In this document: one piece after another, positions 2,618-25,279 of the stretch
Layout: each line of letters opens with the position of its first letter
Position numbering within the stretch: position 1 is the stretch's first letter
From: Escherichia phage LQ5
DNA length: 64,000 bases
Direction: 5' to 3' (one strand)
Sequence record: OR677401
Program-made: the position numbers and the translations under genes
The notes under the pieces: model-generated
Seen by the model: the letters and a program-made list of their open reading frames with translations, nothing else
Told to the model about the DNA's origin: nothing
The model's database searches: none

Positions 2618-2762
2618 GTAGCAAAACGTGGTGCCTTATTTGGATGGCCTGTATCCCAGTGATTTGCGTGTGTTTTAGTTTATTGTTGTGGAAATTGGCA
2701 TAAATCAGTATACATCTCCATTAATCATGATATTATAGACCTATCAACTAATGGAGATGATT

Positions 2763-2873
2763 ATGAAAAACTTACTTAAAGCAATTTGGAACATGTTTGT
2801 GTTGTTAATGGTATTGAGCATTTTCCCAATCGTTTTTATGATTGACCATGTACGTGTATTCTTTAACTTCTGA
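2763..2873 (+). CDS. putative 36-aa hydrophobic membrane peptide
   Basis: ATG after GGAGATG SD in third leader cassette; translation MKNLLKAIWNMFVLLMVLSIFPIVFMIDHVRVFFNF is a single TM helix; below the 60-aa track cutoff. Confidence 0.3.
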   Translation: MKNLLKAIWNMFVLLMVLSIFPIVFMIDHVRVFFNF

Positions 2874-2883
2874 GGAAAATATT

Positions 2884-3096
2884 ATGAAACTTTTTAAAGA
2901 TGTGGTAGTCGGCGAGAGCTTTGTATTGCATAATGGCCAACAACTGATTCGCATTTCTCCTTTGCAAGTTGGGACCGAATTACAACCTGTTAATGCTACA
3001 GACCTTTATGATTCAACTAAGCGTTTTTGTGTAGGCCCTAGTGTGCAATGCCTTACTGTTGATGAACTGATGGCTATTTCTGTTGACGCTGAATAA
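2884..3096 (+). CDS. hypothetical small protein
   Basis: Track ORF 2842..3096; ATG at 2884 preceded by TGAGGAAAATATT SD motif. Confidence 0.4.
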   Translation: MKLFKDVVVGESFVLHNGQQLIRISPLQVGTELQPVNATDLYDSTKRFCVGPSVQCLTVDELMAISVDAE

Positions 3097-3106
3097 GGAA
3101 AATATT

Positions 3107-3451
3107 ATGTCTAAATTATTTTTTGGTAATCGCAACATTATGTTCTTTAAACAGATTAGCATGTCAGAAACATTTGATTTAAGTTATTCGGGCGACACAA
3201 AAGCTGTTAACCTTAAAAATTTAGCGTCTGCAGAATTTGCATTCTATCAGGACCCTGAAACTGGTTTCTACAAATTTATTAAGTTCCGCATGACTATGGA
3301 CCGCGATTATCGTGACGTTTATTATACAAGTTATGAAAGTGCTATCAATGCAATTCGCGAAGCTTATGGATTGGATTCGTTGTCTCTTGACCGCCTGTAT
3401 AATGCAAGCCTTTACACCAGCGGATTTATTTTAGAACAACTTCAAAAATAG
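3107..3451 (+). CDS. hypothetical protein
   Basis: Track ORF 3083..3451; ATG at 3107 preceded by AAGGAAAATATT. Confidence 0.4.
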   Translation: MSKLFFGNRNIMFFKQISMSETFDLSYSGDTKAVNLKNLASAEFAFYQDPETGFYKFIKFRMTMDRDYRDVYYTSYESAINAIREAYGLDSLSLDRLYNASLYTSGFILEQLQK

Positions 3452-18100: not shown

Positions 18101-19218
18101 TTATCTCCTACGGCAGCCTTAATATTTACTGTCTGAGCTTTACGGAGATAGTTCAGAGCAATCTTAACGACATCACCCTGGGCCACACCGGTAGGTAATG
18201 TGATATTAATTGTCTGGGGTGTCGTGTTATTAGGACCAAAAACAATAACACTTTCGTTAGCCAAGAGTTCAACATCGTCACGAATTACACGTAAACGAGT
18301 TTGTCGGTCGCCGTCCCAAACATACCATAATTTTTCGGTAGAGTTATAAACAAAGAATCCATCACCTGAAGTACGGAATTCCATGCTATGCTGGCCAGGC
18401 TTACCTAATGAAGATGACGCATCAAATGTTTCAACGATTAAGTGGAATTTACTTCCTAAACCATCGATATCAACGGTTTTAATAATATCACCTTGGTTCG
18501 CATACTTAGGAAGAGTAAACTTAATTACTGCACCTGAAGTATAACGACGTAAAACGTTATCACCCGCTTGTGATTGGAACTGGGCGGTGTTCGGTTCTAC
18601 ACGAATACCACGTTCTTCATTAGCTGCTTCCCAGAAATGCCATAAACGGTTGGCAAAGATAATCATATTATAGGAAAAAGGCTTCGTAATTAAGGTCTCA
18701 GTGAACTGGTTACCGAAACGGACAATTTTCTGATTACCACCACCTGGAGCAGAACTAGACTGGAGCTTAATTTCATTATAACCTACACGGCCACCAATAT
18801 CCTTGATTACGATGGTATCACCATCAGTAGGGTTCGGAGGCAGGGTAAATGTAGTAAAGCTAGCAGCAGAATCCACAGCAATATATTCACCGGAAGCCAG
18901 CTGGCGTGTAGGAGATGCTACGGTAATCCATTTAGGGTCAGTACGAGTTGCAGTCCAATAACCCGGTACAAAGGTTCCTGCTGGAGCATCGATATCACGT
19001 TGAGCAACCCAGATACGTTGGTCATGGATTACGGCAAACCCTTTCTTATATCCGCGCGTCTCGTCGTACGCCTGGATGGTGTTCTCATCTATAAAGAATT
19101 CAACGTTGACGCCGTCGTCTAATACATTGTAATCGGCTTTGGCAACATTGATAACTTTCTCGCCTGCAGCATCGAGTCCGGATGTAGCACGGAAGGCAGG
19201 TTTTAAAATATCGGCCAT
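15169..19218 (-). CDS. 34: gp34 long tail fibre proximal subunit
   Basis: 1349 aa; ...AGEKVINVA.AD...DGVNV...ENT.Q.YD.TRGY... and C-terminal ...LRIGNVRI.PDPV.K.VKFEW.E match T4 gp34; internal repeats ETRRG.A.IAT. Confidence 0.92.
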   Translation of the reverse strand: MADILKPAFRATSGLDAAGEKVINVAKADYNVLDDGVNVEFFIDENTIQAYDETRGYKKGFAVIHDQRIWVAQRDIDAPAGTFVPGYWTATRTDPKWITVASPTRQLASGEYIAVDSAASFTTFTLPPNPTDGDTIVIKDIGGRVGYNEIKLQSSSAPGGGNQKIVRFGNQFTETLITKPFSYNMIIFANRLWHFWEAANEERGIRVEPNTAQFQSQAGDNVLRRYTSGAVIKFTLPKYANQGDIIKTVDIDGLGSKFHLIVETFDASSSLGKPGQHSMEFRTSGDGFFVYNSTEKLWYVWDGDRQTRLRVIRDDVELLANESVIVFGPNNTTPQTINITLPTGVAQGDVVKIALNYLRKAQTVNIKAAVGDKIASSVQLLQFPKRSEYPPETEWVLNDVLTFNGNISYTPVIELSYIEDTATGGKYWVVAQNVPTIERVDSKDDLTRARLGVIALASQTQANVDHENNPEKELAITPQTLANRVATESRRGIARIATTAQVNQDTTFAFQDDLIISPKKLNERTATETRRGVAEIATQVETNTGTDDTTIITPKKLQARQGSESLSGIVTYTSTVGTTPATARDTVGTNVYNKNVGNLVISPKALDQYKATQVQQGTVYLSNQSEVNAGQSASGFANSAVSPETLHARVALDTRTGLIEIATQQETDTGTDYTRAVTPKTLNDRKATEGLTGIARIATQVEFDAGTLDNVISTPLKIKTRFNDTARTSVSAASGLVESGTLWNHYTLDIREANETQRGTARLATQTEVNVGTDDKTIITPLKLHSKKSTESSEGIIRVATNTETTAGTSKVLAVSPSGLKYVVQTETTWEATALRRGFVKLTEGALTHSGNKVTGSGVKFNSGTGLYENDDTVLNAANYPKTGYAVSSYEMNKTLQNFLPINATAVNSEKLDGLDSLQFIRRDVDQTVNGSLTLTKQLNLAAPLVSSSTANITGNTILGSLEVTGNSTFKNDVSVSSGKSIKFVGPQSGAGTWNSQGDTLAPIFAEINSTPDAKFHPIVKQRLGQGTFSLGTVNDGTRDFKIHYLPSPGSLESFYWTFNTTGDFAVNSGSISISKNANITGITTSNGVSTTTLNASALSSLQNVTTSGTIVSTGQVSANNGLVAQKYVRSVGVKPTLASQAPTAETVGFWSVDINDSATFNLFPGYWTMKTKRQVNIDTVQTKPAGVSDEIWNASGWLTETGAFSSPAIRYRNEDGSFGDEVLGTSGQKLRGTWFDYSVRDKEVKYPGTLTQFGNTLDSCYQDWVCYPTGLNGGTIRYTRTWQKNKNAWTTFSMVYTADNPPSAEEVGALPADNATMGNITILDWLRIGNVRIIPDPVTKSVKFEWIE

Positions 19219-19250
19219 TTTATTTCCTTTTCGTTTTCAGGGTATAGAAC

Positions 19251-19258
19251 TATTTATA
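19251..19258 (-). promoter_or_regulatory. late promoter TATAAATA for gene 34
   Basis: tatttata on plus strand ~33 nt upstream of the gp34 start. Confidence 0.6.
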
Positions 19259-19265
19259 GCAAGAT

Positions 19266-19294
19266 GTTTACTTCCTTAAAACCCATGATATAAT
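19266..19294 (+). promoter_or_regulatory. T4-type early promoter upstream of rnh (divergent from late P34)
   Basis: gtttac, 17-nt spacer, TGATATAAT extended -10. Confidence 0.6.
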
Positions 19295-19325
19295 GGACCT
19301 CTCAACTACTTGAACAGAGGTTCAT

Positions 19326-20273
19326 ATGAACGATTTAGATTTTTTACTTCCTGAAGAAGACCAACAAAAAGATGGATTTTTACTCCTAGATTTCAGCCAA
19401 ATCATTATGGCTGCGGCTTTCCAAGAGTTTGGTGAGAATGCTGGATTTCCTAAAGTAACTACAGCAATGCTTCGACACCTCGTGTTGAATTCAATTAAGA
19501 AAAACATTAAAGACTTTAAAAAACAAGGTTACAGCCAACTGGTTATTTGTGTTGACAACTCTAAATCAGGTTATTGGCGTCGTCGCTATTCACCTTATTA
19601 TAAGAAAAACCGTGCTAAGGCTCGTGAAGAATCATTATTTGATTGGGAAGGCTTATTTACGGCAATGCATATTATTGTTGATGAGCTTGAACATAACATG
19701 CCTTATATTGTTATGAACATCGATACTGTCGAGGCCGATGACCATATTGCTGTTTTAACCCGAATCCTCACGGCTTTAGGCCATCCTGTTATGATCGGTT
19801 CTTCGGATGGTGACTTTACCCAGCTCCATAAATTCCCTGGGGTAAAACAATGGTCTCCAATGCAGAAAAAATTCGTCAAAACAAAATCTGGCGATTCATT
19901 GCTTGATTGCGTGACTAAGGTTGTTAAAGGCGACCGTAAAGATAACGTCGCGAGTATTAAAGTTCGTGGTGATTACTGGTTGACGATGGTTGAAGGCGAA
20001 CGTACTCCTAGCACTCGTGCCAAGGAACTTGAAGCAATTGCTCTGAATTATTACGACCATGATATAATTAAAACACTTCTTACTGAAGAACAATATGAAC
20101 GTTTCTGTGAAAACCAAATCTTAATTGATATGGACTTTATTCCAGATGATATTGTTGCTTTAATTACTGAAAGATATAATACGTATAACAAACCTTCGAA
20201 ATCTAAAGTCTATCCTTATTTCGTTAAATCTGGTTTGTCTAAACTAACCGCTACAGTAGCTGATTTTTATTAA
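19326..20273 (+). CDS. rnh: RNase H (5'-3' exonuclease / flap endonuclease)
   Basis: 315 aa (T4 RNase H is 305 aa); FEN-family acidic motifs; position between 34 and dsbA. Confidence 0.88.
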   Translation: MNDLDFLLPEEDQQKDGFLLLDFSQIIMAAAFQEFGENAGFPKVTTAMLRHLVLNSIKKNIKDFKKQGYSQLVICVDNSKSGYWRRRYSPYYKKNRAKAREESLFDWEGLFTAMHIIVDELEHNMPYIVMNIDTVEADDHIAVLTRILTALGHPVMIGSSDGDFTQLHKFPGVKQWSPMQKKFVKTKSGDSLLDCVTKVVKGDRKDNVASIKVRGDYWLTMVEGERTPSTRAKELEAIALNYYDHDIIKTLLTEEQYERFCENQILIDMDFIPDDIVALITERYNTYNKPSKSKVYPYFVKSGLSKLTATVADFY

Positions 20274-20283
20274 GGTGAATATA

Positions 20284-20553
20284 ATGGCTAAAGAAAAAGT
20301 GAAAGTTGAATTCAATCAAGAAGAACATGGTAACACATTGGCACAACTGATTAAGTCGGCTTCTGATACTAAATTAAAAATGGAAGCTTACGGTGACGAA
20401 ATTAAAGATATCAAAGACCGTGCTAAGACTGAACTTGGTGTAGACGGTAAAATGTTTAACCAACTGTTCTCTCTGTACCATAAAGGCACTCGTGAACGTT
20501 TCGAAGACGAAAAAACTGAAGTGGTAGAACTGTATGACACAATCTTTGAATGA
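20284..20553 (+). CDS. dsbA: DsbA double-stranded DNA-binding protein
   Basis: MAKEKVKVEF...DIKDRAK.ELGVDGKMFN.L..LYHK..RE.FE.E..EVVELYDT.F matches T4 DsbA (MAKKEMVEFDE...). Confidence 0.85.
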   Translation: MAKEKVKVEFNQEEHGNTLAQLIKSASDTKLKMEAYGDEIKDIKDRAKTELGVDGKMFNQLFSLYHKGTRERFEDEKTEVVELYDTIFE

Positions 20554-20836
20554 TTTTGATGGAGCGGTTAATACCGCTTCCGAACCTGTCCATGTGCTCG
20601 TAAACAAACAACAGAATGGCCTTGATATTGAGGCCTTTGTTGAAGCCGAAGGTTGCAGTTACCTCGAAGCGGCTACCGCATGGTTGGAAGAGAACAGCAT
20701 CCCTGAAGGTAACTTTGCTCGTTATTTGCCTGCAGGAATTATTGATAAAATTATGAACGAAGCCATTGATGATAACTTGCTTCGACCTTCAATGGCCCGA
20801 ACGCAAAAGACTAATACCCTGGATTTCTTGTTATGA
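20534..20836 (+). CDS. 33: gp33 late-transcription co-activator
   Basis: 100-aa ORF overlapping the dsbA end, at the position between dsbA and 59. Confidence 0.7.
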   Translation: MTQSLNDFDGAVNTASEPVHVLVNKQQNGLDIEAFVEAEGCSYLEAATAWLEENSIPEGNFARYLPAGIIDKIMNEAIDDNLLRPSMARTQKTNTLDFLL

Positions 20837-21519
20837 TTAAACACACCGTATATAAAGTAACCAATAAATTGAATGGTAAAATTTATATCGGTGTGCATAA
20901 AGAAACCAAACGCCATGACCATTATATGGGTTCAGGTAAGTTAATTAAGAAGGCTATATTAAAACATGGTATAGAGAATTTTGAAAAAGAAATTCTCTTT
21001 GTTATGGATTCCCAAGAGGAGGCCTTTGATAAAGAGCGAGAACTCGTTAACGAAGAATTTGTTTCAGACCCGAATACTTATAATTTGGTTGTTGGCGGTA
21101 AAGGTGGACTTGGTAAGAAAATATCTGAAGAACATAAACTTGCTATAAGTAAATCTAAATTGGGTATTCCACGACCTGATAGTGTTTGTAAAAAAGTTTC
21201 TATAACAAGAAGACTTAGAAATATACCTTCACCAAATAAAGGTATTAATCTTACCGATGCACATCGAAAAGCTCTAAGTAAATCCAGAGCAGGTAAGAAA
21301 GGACCTAAAATGCCTGATAGTACAAGAGCTGCTCTTCTTAAGGCAAATACAGGACCTAGGCCACAATCTTTTAAAGACTTATACAAAAAGAAATTGCTTA
21401 TCGATGGAATATGTTATGATTCATGTTCTGAAGTGGCTTCCAAATTCGGAATATCCAATAGTTTGGTTAGTTACAGATTAAAAAGCGATAAGTGGACTGG
21501 ATGGAAATATCATGATTAA
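20833..21519 (+). CDS. Seg-type GIY-YIG homing endonuclease with NUMOD3-like repeats
   Basis: N-terminus VYKVTNKLNGKIYIGV (GIY...YIG); downstream repeats ISEEHKLAISKSKLG / TDAHRKALSKSRAGKKG / STRAALLKANTG; AT-rich. Confidence 0.7.
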   Translation: MIKHTVYKVTNKLNGKIYIGVHKETKRHDHYMGSGKLIKKAILKHGIENFEKEILFVMDSQEEAFDKERELVNEEFVSDPNTYNLVVGGKGGLGKKISEEHKLAISKSKLGIPRPDSVCKKVSITRRLRNIPSPNKGINLTDAHRKALSKSRAGKKGPKMPDSTRAALLKANTGPRPQSFKDLYKKKLLIDGICYDSCSEVASKFGISNSLVSYRLKSDKWTGWKYHD

Positions 21520-22165
21520 GATTCGTATGCCACCAAACAATAATCGTATGGTGAATGGTAAGAGCGTGTATTCTTTATATTTGCAACTTAAGCATCACTT
21601 CAATGCCAAATACGACGTTATCAAATATAACTGGGTCATGCGAATCTCTGATACGGCTTATCAAAAACGTCGTGACAAATATTTCTTTGAGAAATTGAGT
21701 GATAAATACACTTTGAAAGAGCTTGCTCTTATCTTCATGAGTAACTTGGTGGCTAACCAAGACGCATGGATTGGCGACATCAGTGATGCTGACGCCTTAG
21801 TCTTTTACCGAGAATATATCGGTAGACTTAAAAGAATAAAACAAGTTTTTGAGGATGATATCAAAAACATTTATTATTTTAGTAAGAAAGTGGAAGTCCA
21901 AGCGCTTTCTGAAATTTTTGATTATAATAAAAAAGTTAACTCGAGCTATATTTTTAAGCTCCTTCAATCGAATGTTATTTCATTCGAAACGTTTATTTTG
22001 CTTGACAGTTTTCTCAATATAATTGATAAGCATGATGAACAGACCAACGATTTAGTATGGTCTAAGTATTCAACTAAATTAAATGCTTATAAGAAAATTC
22101 TTATAATAGATGCTGTAGAGGCAAGAAAATTATTCATTGAGACTATTAAGAGTTGTCAATTTTGA
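21512..22165 (+). CDS. 59: gp59 helicase-loading protein
   Basis: 217 aa, same length as T4 gp59; long near-identical blocks (GKSVY.LYL..K.H.N.KYDVIKYNW.MR.SD.AYQKRRDKYFF.KLS.KY.LKELALIF.SNLVANQDAWIGDISDADALVFYREYIGRLK). Confidence 0.93.
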   Translation: MIKIRMPPNNNRMVNGKSVYSLYLQLKHHFNAKYDVIKYNWVMRISDTAYQKRRDKYFFEKLSDKYTLKELALIFMSNLVANQDAWIGDISDADALVFYREYIGRLKRIKQVFEDDIKNIYYFSKKVEVQALSEIFDYNKKVNSSYIFKLLQSNVISFETFILLDSFLNIIDKHDEQTNDLVWSKYSTKLNAYKKILIIDAVEARKLFIETIKSCQF

Positions 22166-22782
22166 ATATAGTTTATTGGCTAGAATTTAGTCAACGTATC
22201 AAAGCCAAAACACCTCCCTATTATTATATCGGGTCTAAGCATGATTGCTTAATTAAAAATGGTGTTATAATTGATTCACGTAACAAAGAATATTGGTCTT
22301 CGTGTAAACAACCACGATTTATCTCTGCTTTGTCTGAGCGTCCTAAAGTTAAAGTTCTTCATGTATGCGAAGATGTTTTAACTGAAGAAGAATTTTACCA
22401 TAATCATTATGATGTGGTTAAATCACCCTTATTCTTTAATAAGGCAATGGCTAAAGGGACTTTCAAATCCTGTTTGAAAGGTAAATCCAAATCTGAAAGC
22501 CATAAACAAAAGATGAAAGAAAGTTCTCATCTTAAAGGTAAAGAGCCATGGGAACATCCTAATGCTATAGCAAAAGGTACCCATTTAGTGTGGAAAAATG
22601 CTAAAGTCTTTTATGACTGGTATATAGGCCCACATGAAACTACTAGATTAGGTCCGAAGATAATGTCTCGTGAAACCGGTTTAGCCTGTTCTATAATGAC
22701 AGGACATTCAATGATAAATAAATTTAAATCAGGATGGAATCCTCATCTCGATATTAAATTTAATGAATTTGCTTCAAACTGA
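22153..22782 (+). CDS. putative Seg-like homing endonuclease (degenerate GIY-YIG, NUMOD-like motif)
   Basis: N-terminus IVYWLEF...YYYIGS; basic GKSKSESHKQKMKESSHLKGK segment; sits in the 59-32 interval where T4 carries segG. Confidence 0.45.
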   Translation: MSILNIVYWLEFSQRIKAKTPPYYYIGSKHDCLIKNGVIIDSRNKEYWSSCKQPRFISALSERPKVKVLHVCEDVLTEEEFYHNHYDVVKSPLFFNKAMAKGTFKSCLKGKSKSESHKQKMKESSHLKGKEPWEHPNAIAKGTHLVWKNAKVFYDWYIGPHETTRLGPKIMSRETGLACSIMTGHSMINKFKSGWNPHLDIKFNEFASN

Positions 22783-22886
22783 GGGTGATATAATTACCCT
22801 CTGGAACAAACCTAGTTATCAAGGTAAATGTGGTAACACCAACTGTTAATAATTAATTAATTAATTAAATAAATAAGGTAAATAAT
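22783..22886 (+). promoter_or_regulatory. gene 32 5' leader: AU-rich (UUAA/UAAU)n tract with upstream GGG...CCC hairpin, candidate gp32 autogenous translational operator
   Basis: gggtgatataattaccc hairpin followed by ttaataattaattaattaattaaataaataagg before the gp32 ATG. Confidence 0.5.
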
Positions 22887-23792
22887 ATGTTTAAACGTAA
22901 AGACCCTTCCCAACTGGCTGCTCAACTGTCTGCAATGAAAGGTGGTTCTTCTTTCTCTTCCGATGATAAAGCTGAATGGAAATTGAAAGATGACAACGGT
23001 GTTGGTACTGCGGTAATTCGTTTCCTACCTTCGAAAAACGAAGAAAATCCATCCCCATTCATTAAGCTCGTTAACCACGGCTTCAAGAAAAACGGTCAAT
23101 GGTACATTGAAAACTGCACGTCTACTCACGGTGATTTCGATTCTTGTCCTGTATGTAAATACATGAACCAGAACGATACCTTTAATACTAATAACGCCGA
23201 ATACAAACTGATGAAACGTAAAACTTCCTTCTGGGCTAACATCCTTGTTATTAAGGATAGTGCAGTGCCTGCTAACGAAGGTAAAGTGTTTAAATTCCGT
23301 TTCGGTCAGAAAATTATGGATAAAATCAACCAGATGGTTGAAGTTGATACTGATATTGGTGAAGTGCCGGTTGACGTAACATGTCCGTTTGATGGTGCGA
23401 ACTTCGTACTGAAATCTAAGAAAGTTGGCGACTTCAAAAACTACGACGATTCCAAATTCATGGGTCAGTCTGAAATTCCTAACATCAATGATGAAGCTTA
23501 CCAAGCTAAATTGATGGAAGAAATGCACGACCTTTCTAAACTGCTCGATTTCAAATCATTCGAAACTAACGAAGCTAAGTTTAAGAAAGTTGTTGGTACA
23601 GCTGCTCTTGGTGGTGCTGCCGCTAAAGCTTCTGCAGCCGCTGATAAGATTGGTGATGACCTGGACGCATTCAGTGCAGACCTTGATGCATATGACTCCA
23701 AACCATCTACACCGACTCGTTCCACTACTCCTGAGCCGTCAGTAAGTCCTTCTGATGACGATGGTCTGGACGACCTGTTAGCGGGTCTATAA
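22887..23792 (+). CDS. 32: gp32 single-stranded DNA-binding protein
   Basis: 301 aa, same as T4 gp32; near-identical over most of its length (GFSS.DK.EWKLK.D..G...[10 protein letters not shown]....[29 protein letters not shown]...; C-terminal DDLLAGL). Confidence 0.96.
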
Positions 23793-23808
23793 GTTATTGA
23801 TTTATAAT

Positions 23809-23833
23809 GGGAAGACTTCGGTCTTCCCTTTTT
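23809..23833 (+). terminator. rho-independent terminator after gene 32
   Basis: GGGAAGAC-UUCG-GUCUUCCC + U5. Confidence 0.75.
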
Positions 23834-23844
23834 GGCATTTAATG

Positions 23845-23873
23845 GTTTACAATGCCTTTAAACATGATACTAT
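23845..23873 (+). promoter_or_regulatory. T4-type early promoter (repeated promoter/leader cassette)
   Basis: gtttac, 17-nt spacer, TGATACTAT. Confidence 0.6.
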
Positions 23874-23902
23874 AGACCTATCAACTACATGAGGAAATAA
23901 AA

Positions 23903-24289
23903 ATGGAAATCGGTAAAAAATACGAACTTCGCCCTGAGCGTATCAAAGCTTTTATTAATATCACCCCTATCAATAATAACGATATGGTGGATATTATCCA
24001 AGACAATGGTGGTTGGTTCGAAGTAAAGGATACGATGACCTCGGATGGGGATAAATTTGTAACTAAAATCAAATGTGCGAATGGTAAGATTTTTAGTGCA
24101 GACGGGACACTAGAGGAATATTTTGAATTGCATGAAGATGAGTTCTATTGCTTCCGTGAATATGGTGAACAAGCTGATGAACCTGACACCCCTGTTACTA
24201 AGGCAGGTGTGACTCAAATCCATTGCATTGTCACCGAACAGAACGTCGACCAAATCATTGAACTTTTGCAAAAAACTTTTAAGGCCTAA
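23903..24289 (+). CDS. hypothetical protein (frd.x region; paralogue of 24902..25279)
   Basis: 128 aa; shares ...EYFEL.E.EF..F.E.......PD..T......V........I.L.K.TF... with the 125-aa ORF. Confidence 0.5.
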   Translation: MEIGKKYELRPERIKAFINITPINNNDMVDIIQDNGGWFEVKDTMTSDGDKFVTKIKCANGKIFSADGTLEEYFELHEDEFYCFREYGEQADEPDTPVTKAGVTQIHCIVTEQNVDQIIELLQKTFKA

Positions 24290-24290
24290 T

Positions 24291-24551
24291 ATGACTAAAG
24301 ATGATTTCCTGGATGCAGTAGAAAAAGCCAGTGAGAAATTTGAAGTGATGGGTGTACGAGTTCATAAAGACCGAAATTATGGGCTCGATATCCAAACGTA
24401 CTCGTTATGGCTTGTAGGTGAACATAGTATTGTAACCACTTTAGTTATGGGTGTTGATGCACAACCTTTACTGGTTAAATTCAGAAGTATGGAAAAAGCT
24501 ACCAAAGAAATGATTAAACTTGGTAAATGGCTTGATAAAATTCAAAAATAA
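24291..24551 (+). CDS. hypothetical protein
   Basis: Track ORF 24228..24551; ATG at 24291 overlaps upstream stop (TAATATG). Confidence 0.45.
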   Translation: MTKDDFLDAVEKASEKFEVMGVRVHKDRNYGLDIQTYSLWLVGEHSIVTTLVMGVDAQPLLVKFRSMEKATKEMIKLGKWLDKIQK

Positions 24552-24553
24552 AT

Positions 24554-24582
24554 GTTTACAACACCTTTAAACATGATACTAT
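24554..24582 (+). promoter_or_regulatory. T4-type early promoter (repeated cassette)
   Basis: gtttac, 17-nt spacer, TGATACTAT. Confidence 0.6.
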
Positions 24583-24614
24583 AGACCTATCAACTAATGA
24601 GTGAGGAAAATAAA

Positions 24615-24842
24615 ATGGCTAAGGTTAATATTGATATCGTTGATTTTGAATACACTTACGAAGTTATCCGTAATCGTTATCCTTCTTTGAGTATGACTTA
24701 CATTAAAGATACCCAATTCTTTAGTATTCAAATTGAAGTCCAAGGTCCTCTTGAAGACCTTACCCGCTTTATGCAAAATGAATATTGTGACGGTATGCAT
24801 GCTGAAGACGCTAAATTTTATATGGGCTTGATTCAAGCTTAG
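24615..24842 (+). CDS. hypothetical small protein
   Basis: Track ORF 24597..24842; ATG (MAKVNIDIV...) after GAGGAAAATAAA. Confidence 0.45.
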
Positions 24843-24901: not shown

Positions 24902-25279
24902 ATGATGGAAACTGGTAAATTTTACGTATTGGACCCTGCTGCTAAAAAACAATTCGTCGCTGGTAGTCCTGATGATAATTATAATTCATGCATGGTCAAG
25001 TTGATGGAACAACACGGCAATTCCTTCAAAGTTCTGGATATGTGTTATATTGAAGGCAATTATTTTGTTGAAAAAGTTGAAATGAAAGATGGCACCATCC
25101 TGAATAGTATGGGTGGCGCTGATGAGTACTTTGAACTCGCTGAATGGGAATTCTGTCACTTCCTGGAAGTTGATGGCGATGCTCCTGATGTTGATACCCA
25201 AACCATTCATGTGCAAGTCAATCACAAAAATGCCGCTGAAGTCATTGCACTGATTAAAGCGACTTTTGATATTCGGTAA
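24902..25279 (+). CDS. hypothetical protein (paralogue of 23903..24289)
   Basis: 125 aa; see paralogue. Confidence 0.5.
   Translation: MMETGKFYVLDPAAKKQFVAGSPDDNYNSCMVKLMEQHGNSFKVLDMCYIEGNYFVEKVEMKDGTILNSMGGADEYFELAEWEFCHFLEVDGDAPDVDTQTIHVQVNHKNAAEVIALIKATFDIR

Follow-up and report, generated by a model that had tools for sequence, protein, structure and literature searches.

Two independent, free-standing homing endonuclease genes (HEGs) of the GIY-YIG type have probably colonised both ends of gene 59, the helicase loader gene, in Escherichia phage LQ5, a reading to which we give a probability of about 0.85 on comparative sequence evidence. The DNA analysed, hereafter the window, is 64,000 nucleotides long (record OR677401); the phage is T4-type and JS98-like, and belongs to the genus Dhakavirus. 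Its open reading frame (ORF) map and Pfam matches give the plus-strand order rnh-dsbA-33-[HEG_A]-59-[HEG_B]-32, where HEG_A and HEG_B denote the two elements. A preliminary description of this DNA had placed two Seg-type GIY-YIG ORFs around gene 59 at 20833-22782, an interval bounded precisely by the HEG_A start and the HEG_B stop. No other Seg-like gene in the 64-kb window is found by local tblastn with the full set of T4 Seg proteins as queries. The principal features are as follows.

20833..21519, plus strand: HEG_A, predicted free-standing Seg-type GIY-YIG homing endonuclease gene, 228 amino acids (Pfam, PHROG, BLASTP, AlphaFold2 (AF2) with Foldseek)
20833..20840, plus strand: left copy of the junction octamer ATGATTAA (alignment with JS98, Bp7, NC-G and 04086)
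21512..21519, plus strand: right copy of the junction octamer ATGATTAA (alignment)
21512..22165, plus strand: gene 59, helicase loader, mosaic (Pfam PF08993 and PF08994; runs of informative sites)
21526..21590, plus strand: divergent gene 59 patch, codons 5-27, linked to HEG_A (table of single-nucleotide polymorphisms)
22162..22782, plus strand: HEG_B, predicted SegG-like GIY-YIG homing endonuclease gene, 206 amino acids from TTG 22162 (homology)

Two Seg-type genes flanking gene 59

In JS98, Bp7, NC-G, 04086 and T4, nothing lies between genes 33 and 59; the gene 33 stop overlaps the gene 59 start as ATGA, and the HEG-less phages read ...TTGTT ATGATTAAG ATTCGC... across the boundary. In the window, HEG_A is an exact 679-bp insert between two copies of ATGATTAA (20833 and 21512). 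The left copy, which is the gene 59 start in HEG-less phages, here forms the HEG_A start (M-I-K), and the gene 33 stop overlaps that start as ATGA. The right copy provides the gene 59 start and, read in the alternative frame, the last HEG_A codons (..CAT GAT TAA), and the overlapping layout running from 33 through the HEG to 59 is thus kept despite the insert. The preliminary description had given genes 33 and 59 as adjacent in T4 and taken the first ORF for an insertion; the direct overlap in T4 and the exact insert in the window agree with both statements, and insertion of HEG_A at 33/59 is supported by these alignments.

T4 has no Seg gene at 33/59, unlike the window, and we found no description of a Seg gene at this boundary in the literature searched. 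The same insertion point and overlap design occur in AnYang and IME540, in Mosigvirus (for example SHSML-52-1 and PHB12), in Winklervirus CHI14 and in Enterobacter phage KMB20, and the junctions of the Mosigvirus and Winklervirus carriers are built in the same way. Outside Dhakavirus these genes, known from database annotations, are 44-56% identical to HEG_A at the amino acid level: 56% in Mosigvirus, where 29 of about 153 near-identical records carry one, 49% in Winklervirus CHI14 and Kc304, and 44% in KMB20. Our searches turned up no experimental characterisation for any of these genes. The seamless ATGA overlap is found in T4, in most Mosigviruses and in 45 of 48 Dhakavirus records.

HEG_A passes the Pfam cut-offs for GIY-YIG, SegE_GIY-YIG, NUMOD3 (in two stretches; PF07460, 22.7 bits against a cut-off of 20.4) and I-TevI_DNA-bd, and it matches PHROG 314, ‘homing endonuclease’, at 4.6e-58. 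A catalytic region (residues ~1-92) is followed by NUMOD3-like helices (95-175) and an I-TevI-type helix-turn-helix (HTH; 185-226; PF20987, 53.9 bits against a cut-off of 27, 1.6e-14). The AF2 model (pLDDT 89) puts the GIY strands at residues 3-11 and 17-24, with the motif VY7K...IY18IG20, and predicts four linker helices at residues 99-109, 116-128, 142-152 and 162-172. The three NUMOD3-like repeats reported earlier are therefore about right in number, two passing Pfam and up to four being countable by eye in the model. The top Foldseek matches of the model are both solved I-TevI domains (1i3j first, then 1mk0; probability 1.0), and its GIY-YIG fold is matched by 1mk0 and 1ln0 with probability 1.00 and a TM score of 0.64 normalised to the target.

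Residues Y7, Y18, G20, D29, Y31, G33, G35, E68 and N84 are invariant in 42 HEG_A homologues. E68 and N84 are the counterparts of the catalytic E75 and the downstream N90 of I-TevI, with which this region aligns (HMMER). Over 89 amino acids the catalytic domain of HEG_A and that of T4 SegB share 54% identity, the protein is 39% identical to SegD over 177 amino acids, and T4 SegA-SegE have the invariant DxYMGSG, Glu and Asn set in common with it; its C-terminal I-TevI-type HTH aligns to no T4 Seg protein (BLASTP). I-TevI (td-intron; 1mk0, 1ln0, 1i3j) likewise joins a GIY-YIG domain through an extended linker to a C-terminal HTH, but it is intron-encoded, whereas HEG_A is free-standing, has no zinc finger (no CxxC pairs) and belongs to a family in which the equivalent of R27 is not conserved. 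Taken together, sequence, profile and predicted fold support the identification of HEG_A as a Seg-type GIY-YIG homing endonuclease, and the Seg-type identity proposed earlier holds on the Pfam and PHROG matches, the alignments to T4 Seg proteins and I-TevI, and the predicted fold.

HEG_B matches no Pfam family at E ≤ 1; it matches PHROG 7504, ‘homing endonuclease’, at 1.6e-69 and aligns end to end with T4 SegG (35% identity over 211 columns, E 4e-38, BLASTP). Across 24 homologues V4, Y5, R12, Y22-I23-G24, Y44, S47, E76 and N93 are invariant, and in a profile-profile alignment, weak at 34.7% probability, the HEG_B motifs fall on those of HEG_A. An N-terminal GIY-YIG domain, with the expected residues and fold, precedes a C-terminal helical HTH-like domain. 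The preliminary description had called this ORF degenerate. Because the SegG-clade motif set is present, including IVY...YIG, Glu and Asn, together with the GIY-YIG fold, we instead read HEG_B as an intact SegG-type protein. Comparison with the NC-G copy gives a ratio of non-synonymous to synonymous divergence (dN/dS) of 0.086, with synonymous divergence (dS) of 0.93, which indicates that HEG_B is under purifying selection.

The position of HEG_B is also that of T4 segG (gene 32.1), as had been proposed: each fills the 59/32 interval immediately behind gene 59, in the same orientation, and has a gene 32 promoter, presumed in the case of HEG_B, overlapping its 3′ end. Their N-terminal 50 residues are near-identical (MNIVYW...PPYYYIGSK...EYWSSCKQ). 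The starts differ: in T4 an ATG follows the gene 59 stop by 1 nt, whereas HEG_B begins at a TTG overlapping that stop. The HEG_B ORF opens at TTG 22153 and has no in-frame ATG 5′ of the catalytic Tyr, so translation would begin at TTG 22153 or 22162. The latter, overlapping the gene 59 stop (TTTTGA), is most likely the start: it yields MNIVYW, the beginning seen in T4 SegG and every homologue, and the equivalent start was picked by an independent gene caller on a metagenomic contig.

Database records of related genes show some irregularities. The SegG-like allele of AnYang and Bp7 is annotated from an internal ATG, with loss of the GIY strand (AnYang segment 3350-3400; Bp7 segment 2670-2720). 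This start is probably wrong, since a TTG over the gene 59 stop gives MNIVYKMTW... and restores the catalytic Tyr. In the GenBank record of 04086 the 59/32 interval is unannotated (segment ~2684-3301), yet it encodes a protein 99% identical to HEG_B, and gene 59 is entered as a truncated ‘hypothetical protein’. SegG-like catalytic domains occur with three or more unrelated modules at the C-terminus, of which one is Cys-rich (CP.CGK...H...C); DNA-binding domains are thus exchanged within the SegG clade.

Both HEGs had been described as AT-richer than the flanking core genes. At 33.6% (HEG_A) and 33.2% (HEG_B) GC, this is so relative to genes 33 (43.2%) and 32 (41.9%) but not relative to gene 59 (32.1%). 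Third-position GC alone separates both HEGs, at 22-24% against 35-40%.

Allele states and the recombination footprint

A 3-kb query around the locus is matched by 92 phage records, mostly Dhakavirus, none of them with ≥80% coverage. JS98 has neither HEG, and most relatives are likewise without both. Bp7 carries only the other SegG-like allele, NC-G and 04086 carry only the HEG_B type of the window, and AnYang carries HEG_A together with the other SegG-like allele. That second allele is 58% identical to T4 SegG and 30% identical to HEG_B. Both HEGs are present in some close relatives and absent from others, the junctions being exact and the rest of the backbone collinear.

The HEG_A protein is 100% identical in AnYang and IME540, where it is annotated as ‘homing endonuclease’ or ‘hypothetical’, and its carriers are scattered among backbones. 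A copy of HEG_B identical to that of the window occurs on a read-assembled contig, and the closest phage copy is the unannotated one of 04086. An identical HEG_A protein stands beside a type-1 SegG-like gene, a type-2 gene or an empty 59/32 site. Because HEG_A is seen with all three states, the 33/59 and 59/32 sites assort independently, though they are only 654 bp apart.

Against AnYang, the window has 3 mismatches in the 679 nt of HEG_A (~99.6% identity) and 5 in the first 439 nt of gene 59, while rnh has 53 in 948 nt (5.6%). The corresponding dS is 0.021 for HEG_A and 0.264 for rnh, 12-fold lower in HEG_A. Gene 59 is AnYang-like to ~21900 (~390 bp) and 04086-like from ~21970; against 04086, mismatches from that point number 6/211 in the gene 59 3′ end, 5/621 in HEG_B and 31/907 downstream. 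The switch from AnYang-like to 04086-like sequence indicates that the region is a mosaic in which a crossover inside gene 59 joined two HEG-bearing segments. HEG_A is less diverged than its flanks and shows co-transfer of flanking DNA; HEG_B shows only the 04086-like block from ~21970.

The 5′ end of gene 59 carries a further trace. Between 21526 and 21590, about 11 fixed differences separate HEG_A carriers from non-carriers, including M25Q in the encoded protein, gp59; T4, Mosigvirus, Winklervirus and Dhakavirus without the HEG all keep M25. Identity to the window in the first 100 nt of gene 59 is 97-98% in three carrier records and 84-90% in 45/45 non-carrier Dhakavirus records. The ~65-bp patch is present in all eight carrier loci examined, six of which are metagenomic contigs, and in none of the 45 non-carrier records. 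The patch is a candidate recognition, cleavage or immunity region for HEG_A; equally, it could be a co-converted donor tract. The co-conversion of genes 59 and 32 predicted earlier has a comparative footprint, in the AnYang-like tract of HEG_A plus ~390 bp of gene 59, in the 04086-like sequence from ~21970 onward and in the patch present in all carriers, and the reading of the locus as one of homing with co-conversion is supported by these patterns.

The 59/32 site and the surrounding genes

The remaining features of the locus are listed here.

19326-20273, plus strand: rnh (ORF map)
20275-20553, plus strand: dsbA (ORF map)
20534..20836, plus strand: gene 33, late-transcription co-activator (Pfam PF16805, 1e-25)
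22244..22271, plus strand: MotA-type middle-promoter-like site within HEG_B, ATTGCTTAA-N13-TATAAT (pattern match; putative function)
22768..22794, plus strand: MotA-type middle-promoter-like site over the HEG_B stop, TTTGCTTCA-N12-TATAAT (pattern match)
22887..23792, plus strand: gene 32, single-stranded DNA-binding protein (Pfam PF08804)

HEG_B is flanked on the left by the gene 59 stop and on the right by a TGCTTCA box. The empty 59-32 spacer of JS98 has this box too, so that it defines the right-hand limit of the HEG_B insertion. With TATAAT 12 nt downstream, the box fits the T4 MotA middle-promoter pattern, which has five matches on the plus strand of the whole window. The site at 22768..22794 is presumed from this pattern to be the gene 32 middle promoter, and since it spans the HEG_B stop, HEG_B would read into it. 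In T4, gene 32 promoters are embedded within segG (PMC2988022).

The same box bears on the possibility that the HEGs are ancestral to the genus and that empty sites of the JS98 type are precise deletions, a history of loss rather than gain, which we consider very improbable. Retained in the JS98 spacer and also forming the HEG_B 3′ end, TGCTTCA looks scar-like at first sight. We dropped it as a deletion scar or microhomology because it is better read as the MotA box of the gene 32 middle promoter, and so would be conserved for a reason of its own. Loss is also difficult to reconcile with the widespread seamless overlap at 33/59 in T4, most Mosigviruses and nearly all Dhakavirus records (45/48), and with the scatter of HEG_A carriers, between which dS is 12-fold below that of the backbone. 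Insertion into empty sites remains our preferred reading for both HEGs.

Other signals were sought around the locus. RNA hairpins that might hide the HEG_A, gene 59 or HEG_B starts were not apparent, folding being no better than in shuffled sequences (z +0.95, -0.71 and -0.78, respectively). There is no Rfam match in 20000-24000 and no plus-strand T4 late promoter TATAAATA in 19000-24000, and a sigma-70 scan gave fewer sites than in shuffled sequence.

The DNA between HEG_B and gene 32 varies among relatives on a smaller scale. The gene 32 leader (22783-22886) contains a 30-nt segment, CCTAGTTATCAAGGTAAATGTGGTAACACC, in the window, 04086, AnYang and Bp7 that is not present in JS98 or NC-G (leader counterparts: JS98 segment 2688-2777, T4 segment 3855-3909). 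Together with the following ACCAACTGTTAAT, it resembles GGTAAAGTGTCATAGCACCAACTGTTAAT, a T4 sequence upstream of gene 32. Gene 32 is known to have an operator pseudoknot, for which the changes in the leader seem to be compensatory; the A/U-rich repeat tract of the leader is also length-variable. No Rfam family matched the leader. The gene 32 N-terminus (22887-22920) is polymorphic as well: the window and JS98 have one start in common, 04086, AnYang and Bp7 have MSMFKRRNPAELA, and NC-G adds the MS codons to a sequence that otherwise resembles JS98. Because the window is JS98-like at the gene 32 start inside an otherwise 04086-like segment, the operator/start region appears to be another small mosaic patch.

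Two further variable regions lie outside the locus. Beyond gene 32, positions 23880-24700 form a hypervariable block with frd.2-like paralogues (related ORFs at 23903-24289 and 24902-25279), 93-100% identical to 04086 only and 35-60% identical to AnYang, NC-G, Bp7 and JS98. In the 34-rnh intergenic region (19260-19320), a 60-bp patch matches Bp7 at 100% and the other four relatives at 73-82%; next to it, on the minus strand, is a late-promoter motif of gene 34 (TATAAATA, 19251).

Homing, competing readings and significance

Intronless homing with co-conversion of flanks has been demonstrated experimentally for SegE, SegF and SegG of T4 (PMC2330249, PMC2988022), and T4 provides precedents for both marker exclusion and promoter-less HEG cassettes (PMC2988022, PMC2330249). 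By extension from these enzymes, co-infection with a HEG-less relative would lead each endonuclease to cut the relative's DNA near the empty site. The HEG_A cut would probably fall no more than ~80 bp into gene 59; that of HEG_B would probably fall in or near gene 32 or in the 59/32 spacer, and T4 SegG is reported to cleave gene 32 of HEG-less relatives some distance away from where segG is inserted (PMC2988022). The break would be repaired from the HEG-carrying genome, copying the HEG and adjoining parts of genes 59 and 32, and the carrier genome may be protected by target sequence differences or by the insertion itself.

Several observations weigh against this account. The catalytic Arg of I-TevI (R27) is not conserved across the HEG_A family: HEG_A itself has R27, but most homologues have Leu or Ile there. 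Of the catalytic residues named in the preliminary description, the Tyr, Glu and Asn are conserved in the HEG_A family and the Arg is not. T4 SegA-E have a DGYMGSG motif at the Arg position; SegA, SegB, SegC and SegE are recorded as active and SegD as not determined (PMC2988022). Because these T4 enzymes likewise have DGYMGSG and four are listed as active, the missing Arg is best taken as a trait of the Seg subfamily rather than as decay. Secondly, among six Mosigvirus genomes, carriers and non-carriers are separated by one fixed synonymous site in the gene 59 5′ end, so the idea of a target patch is not replicated in that genus. Finally, type-1 HEG_B carriers and the empty-site JS98 have the same 5′ gene 32 allele, and for this reason no candidate target or immunity determinant emerged for HEG_B.

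The Arg column also enters into an alternative that we regard as unlikely, namely that these proteins are former homing endonucleases kept because essential neighbours depend on them, or that they act as DNA-binding proteins only. Signals of both neighbouring genes are embedded in the HEGs, the gene 59 start in the 3′ end of HEG_A and the MotA-like promoter across the stop of HEG_B, and a review notes that HEGs so embedded tend to be retained (PMC2988022); in addition, HEG_B depends on a weak TTG start. Apart from the Arg, however, all catalytic positions are invariant in both families, and the low dN/dS of HEG_B (0.086) extends across the whole protein. The near-identity of HEG_A over backbones 5-6% apart, beside three states of the neighbouring site, points to recent movement, and HEG-less relatives express genes 59 and 32 without either HEG.

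It is also conceivable that the enzymes serve mainly as inter-phage weapons that degrade co-infecting relatives, with HEG spread as a by-product, although we judge this the least probable of the alternatives considered here. Partial exclusion of T2 markers by T4 has been traced to SegF and SegG (PMC2330249), and the targets would be essential replication genes. Such weapons would act through the same molecular steps as homing, so that sequence alone cannot separate the two, but the footprints seen are local co-conversion tracts and not genome-wide exclusion. We retain homing by both genes as the preferred reading.

A bolder proposal, which we offer tentatively and consider rather less than an even bet, is that the 33/59 element represents an uncharacterised Seg lineage outside T4 SegA-G that tracks the gene 59 start across at least four T4-like genera, has its target in the first ~80 bp of that gene, and by its carriage fixed M25Q in Dhakavirus gp59. 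If this is true, a selfish nuclease forced a change in an essential replication protein, at a gp59 residue otherwise invariant from T4 to Winklervirus, and gene 59 codons 5-27 offer a candidate target for the lineage.

Elements of this kind are well known. GenBank/RefSeq already contain the HEG_A protein, HEG_B is a SegG homologue, and no new kind of system is described here. Ordinary as such elements are for T4-like phages, at this locus recent insertion and the flanking DNA dragged with it have left unusually clear traces. The comparison also provides corrections to existing annotations, in the TTG starts of Dhakavirus SegG-like genes and the unannotated copy in 04086. Among T4-like phages, local mosaicism and marker exclusion are driven in large part by free-standing homing endonucleases, and the gene 59 region of LQ5 is a compact natural example, with two HEGs 654 bp apart around an essential gene, a three-state site, and visible tracts of recombination and co-conversion.

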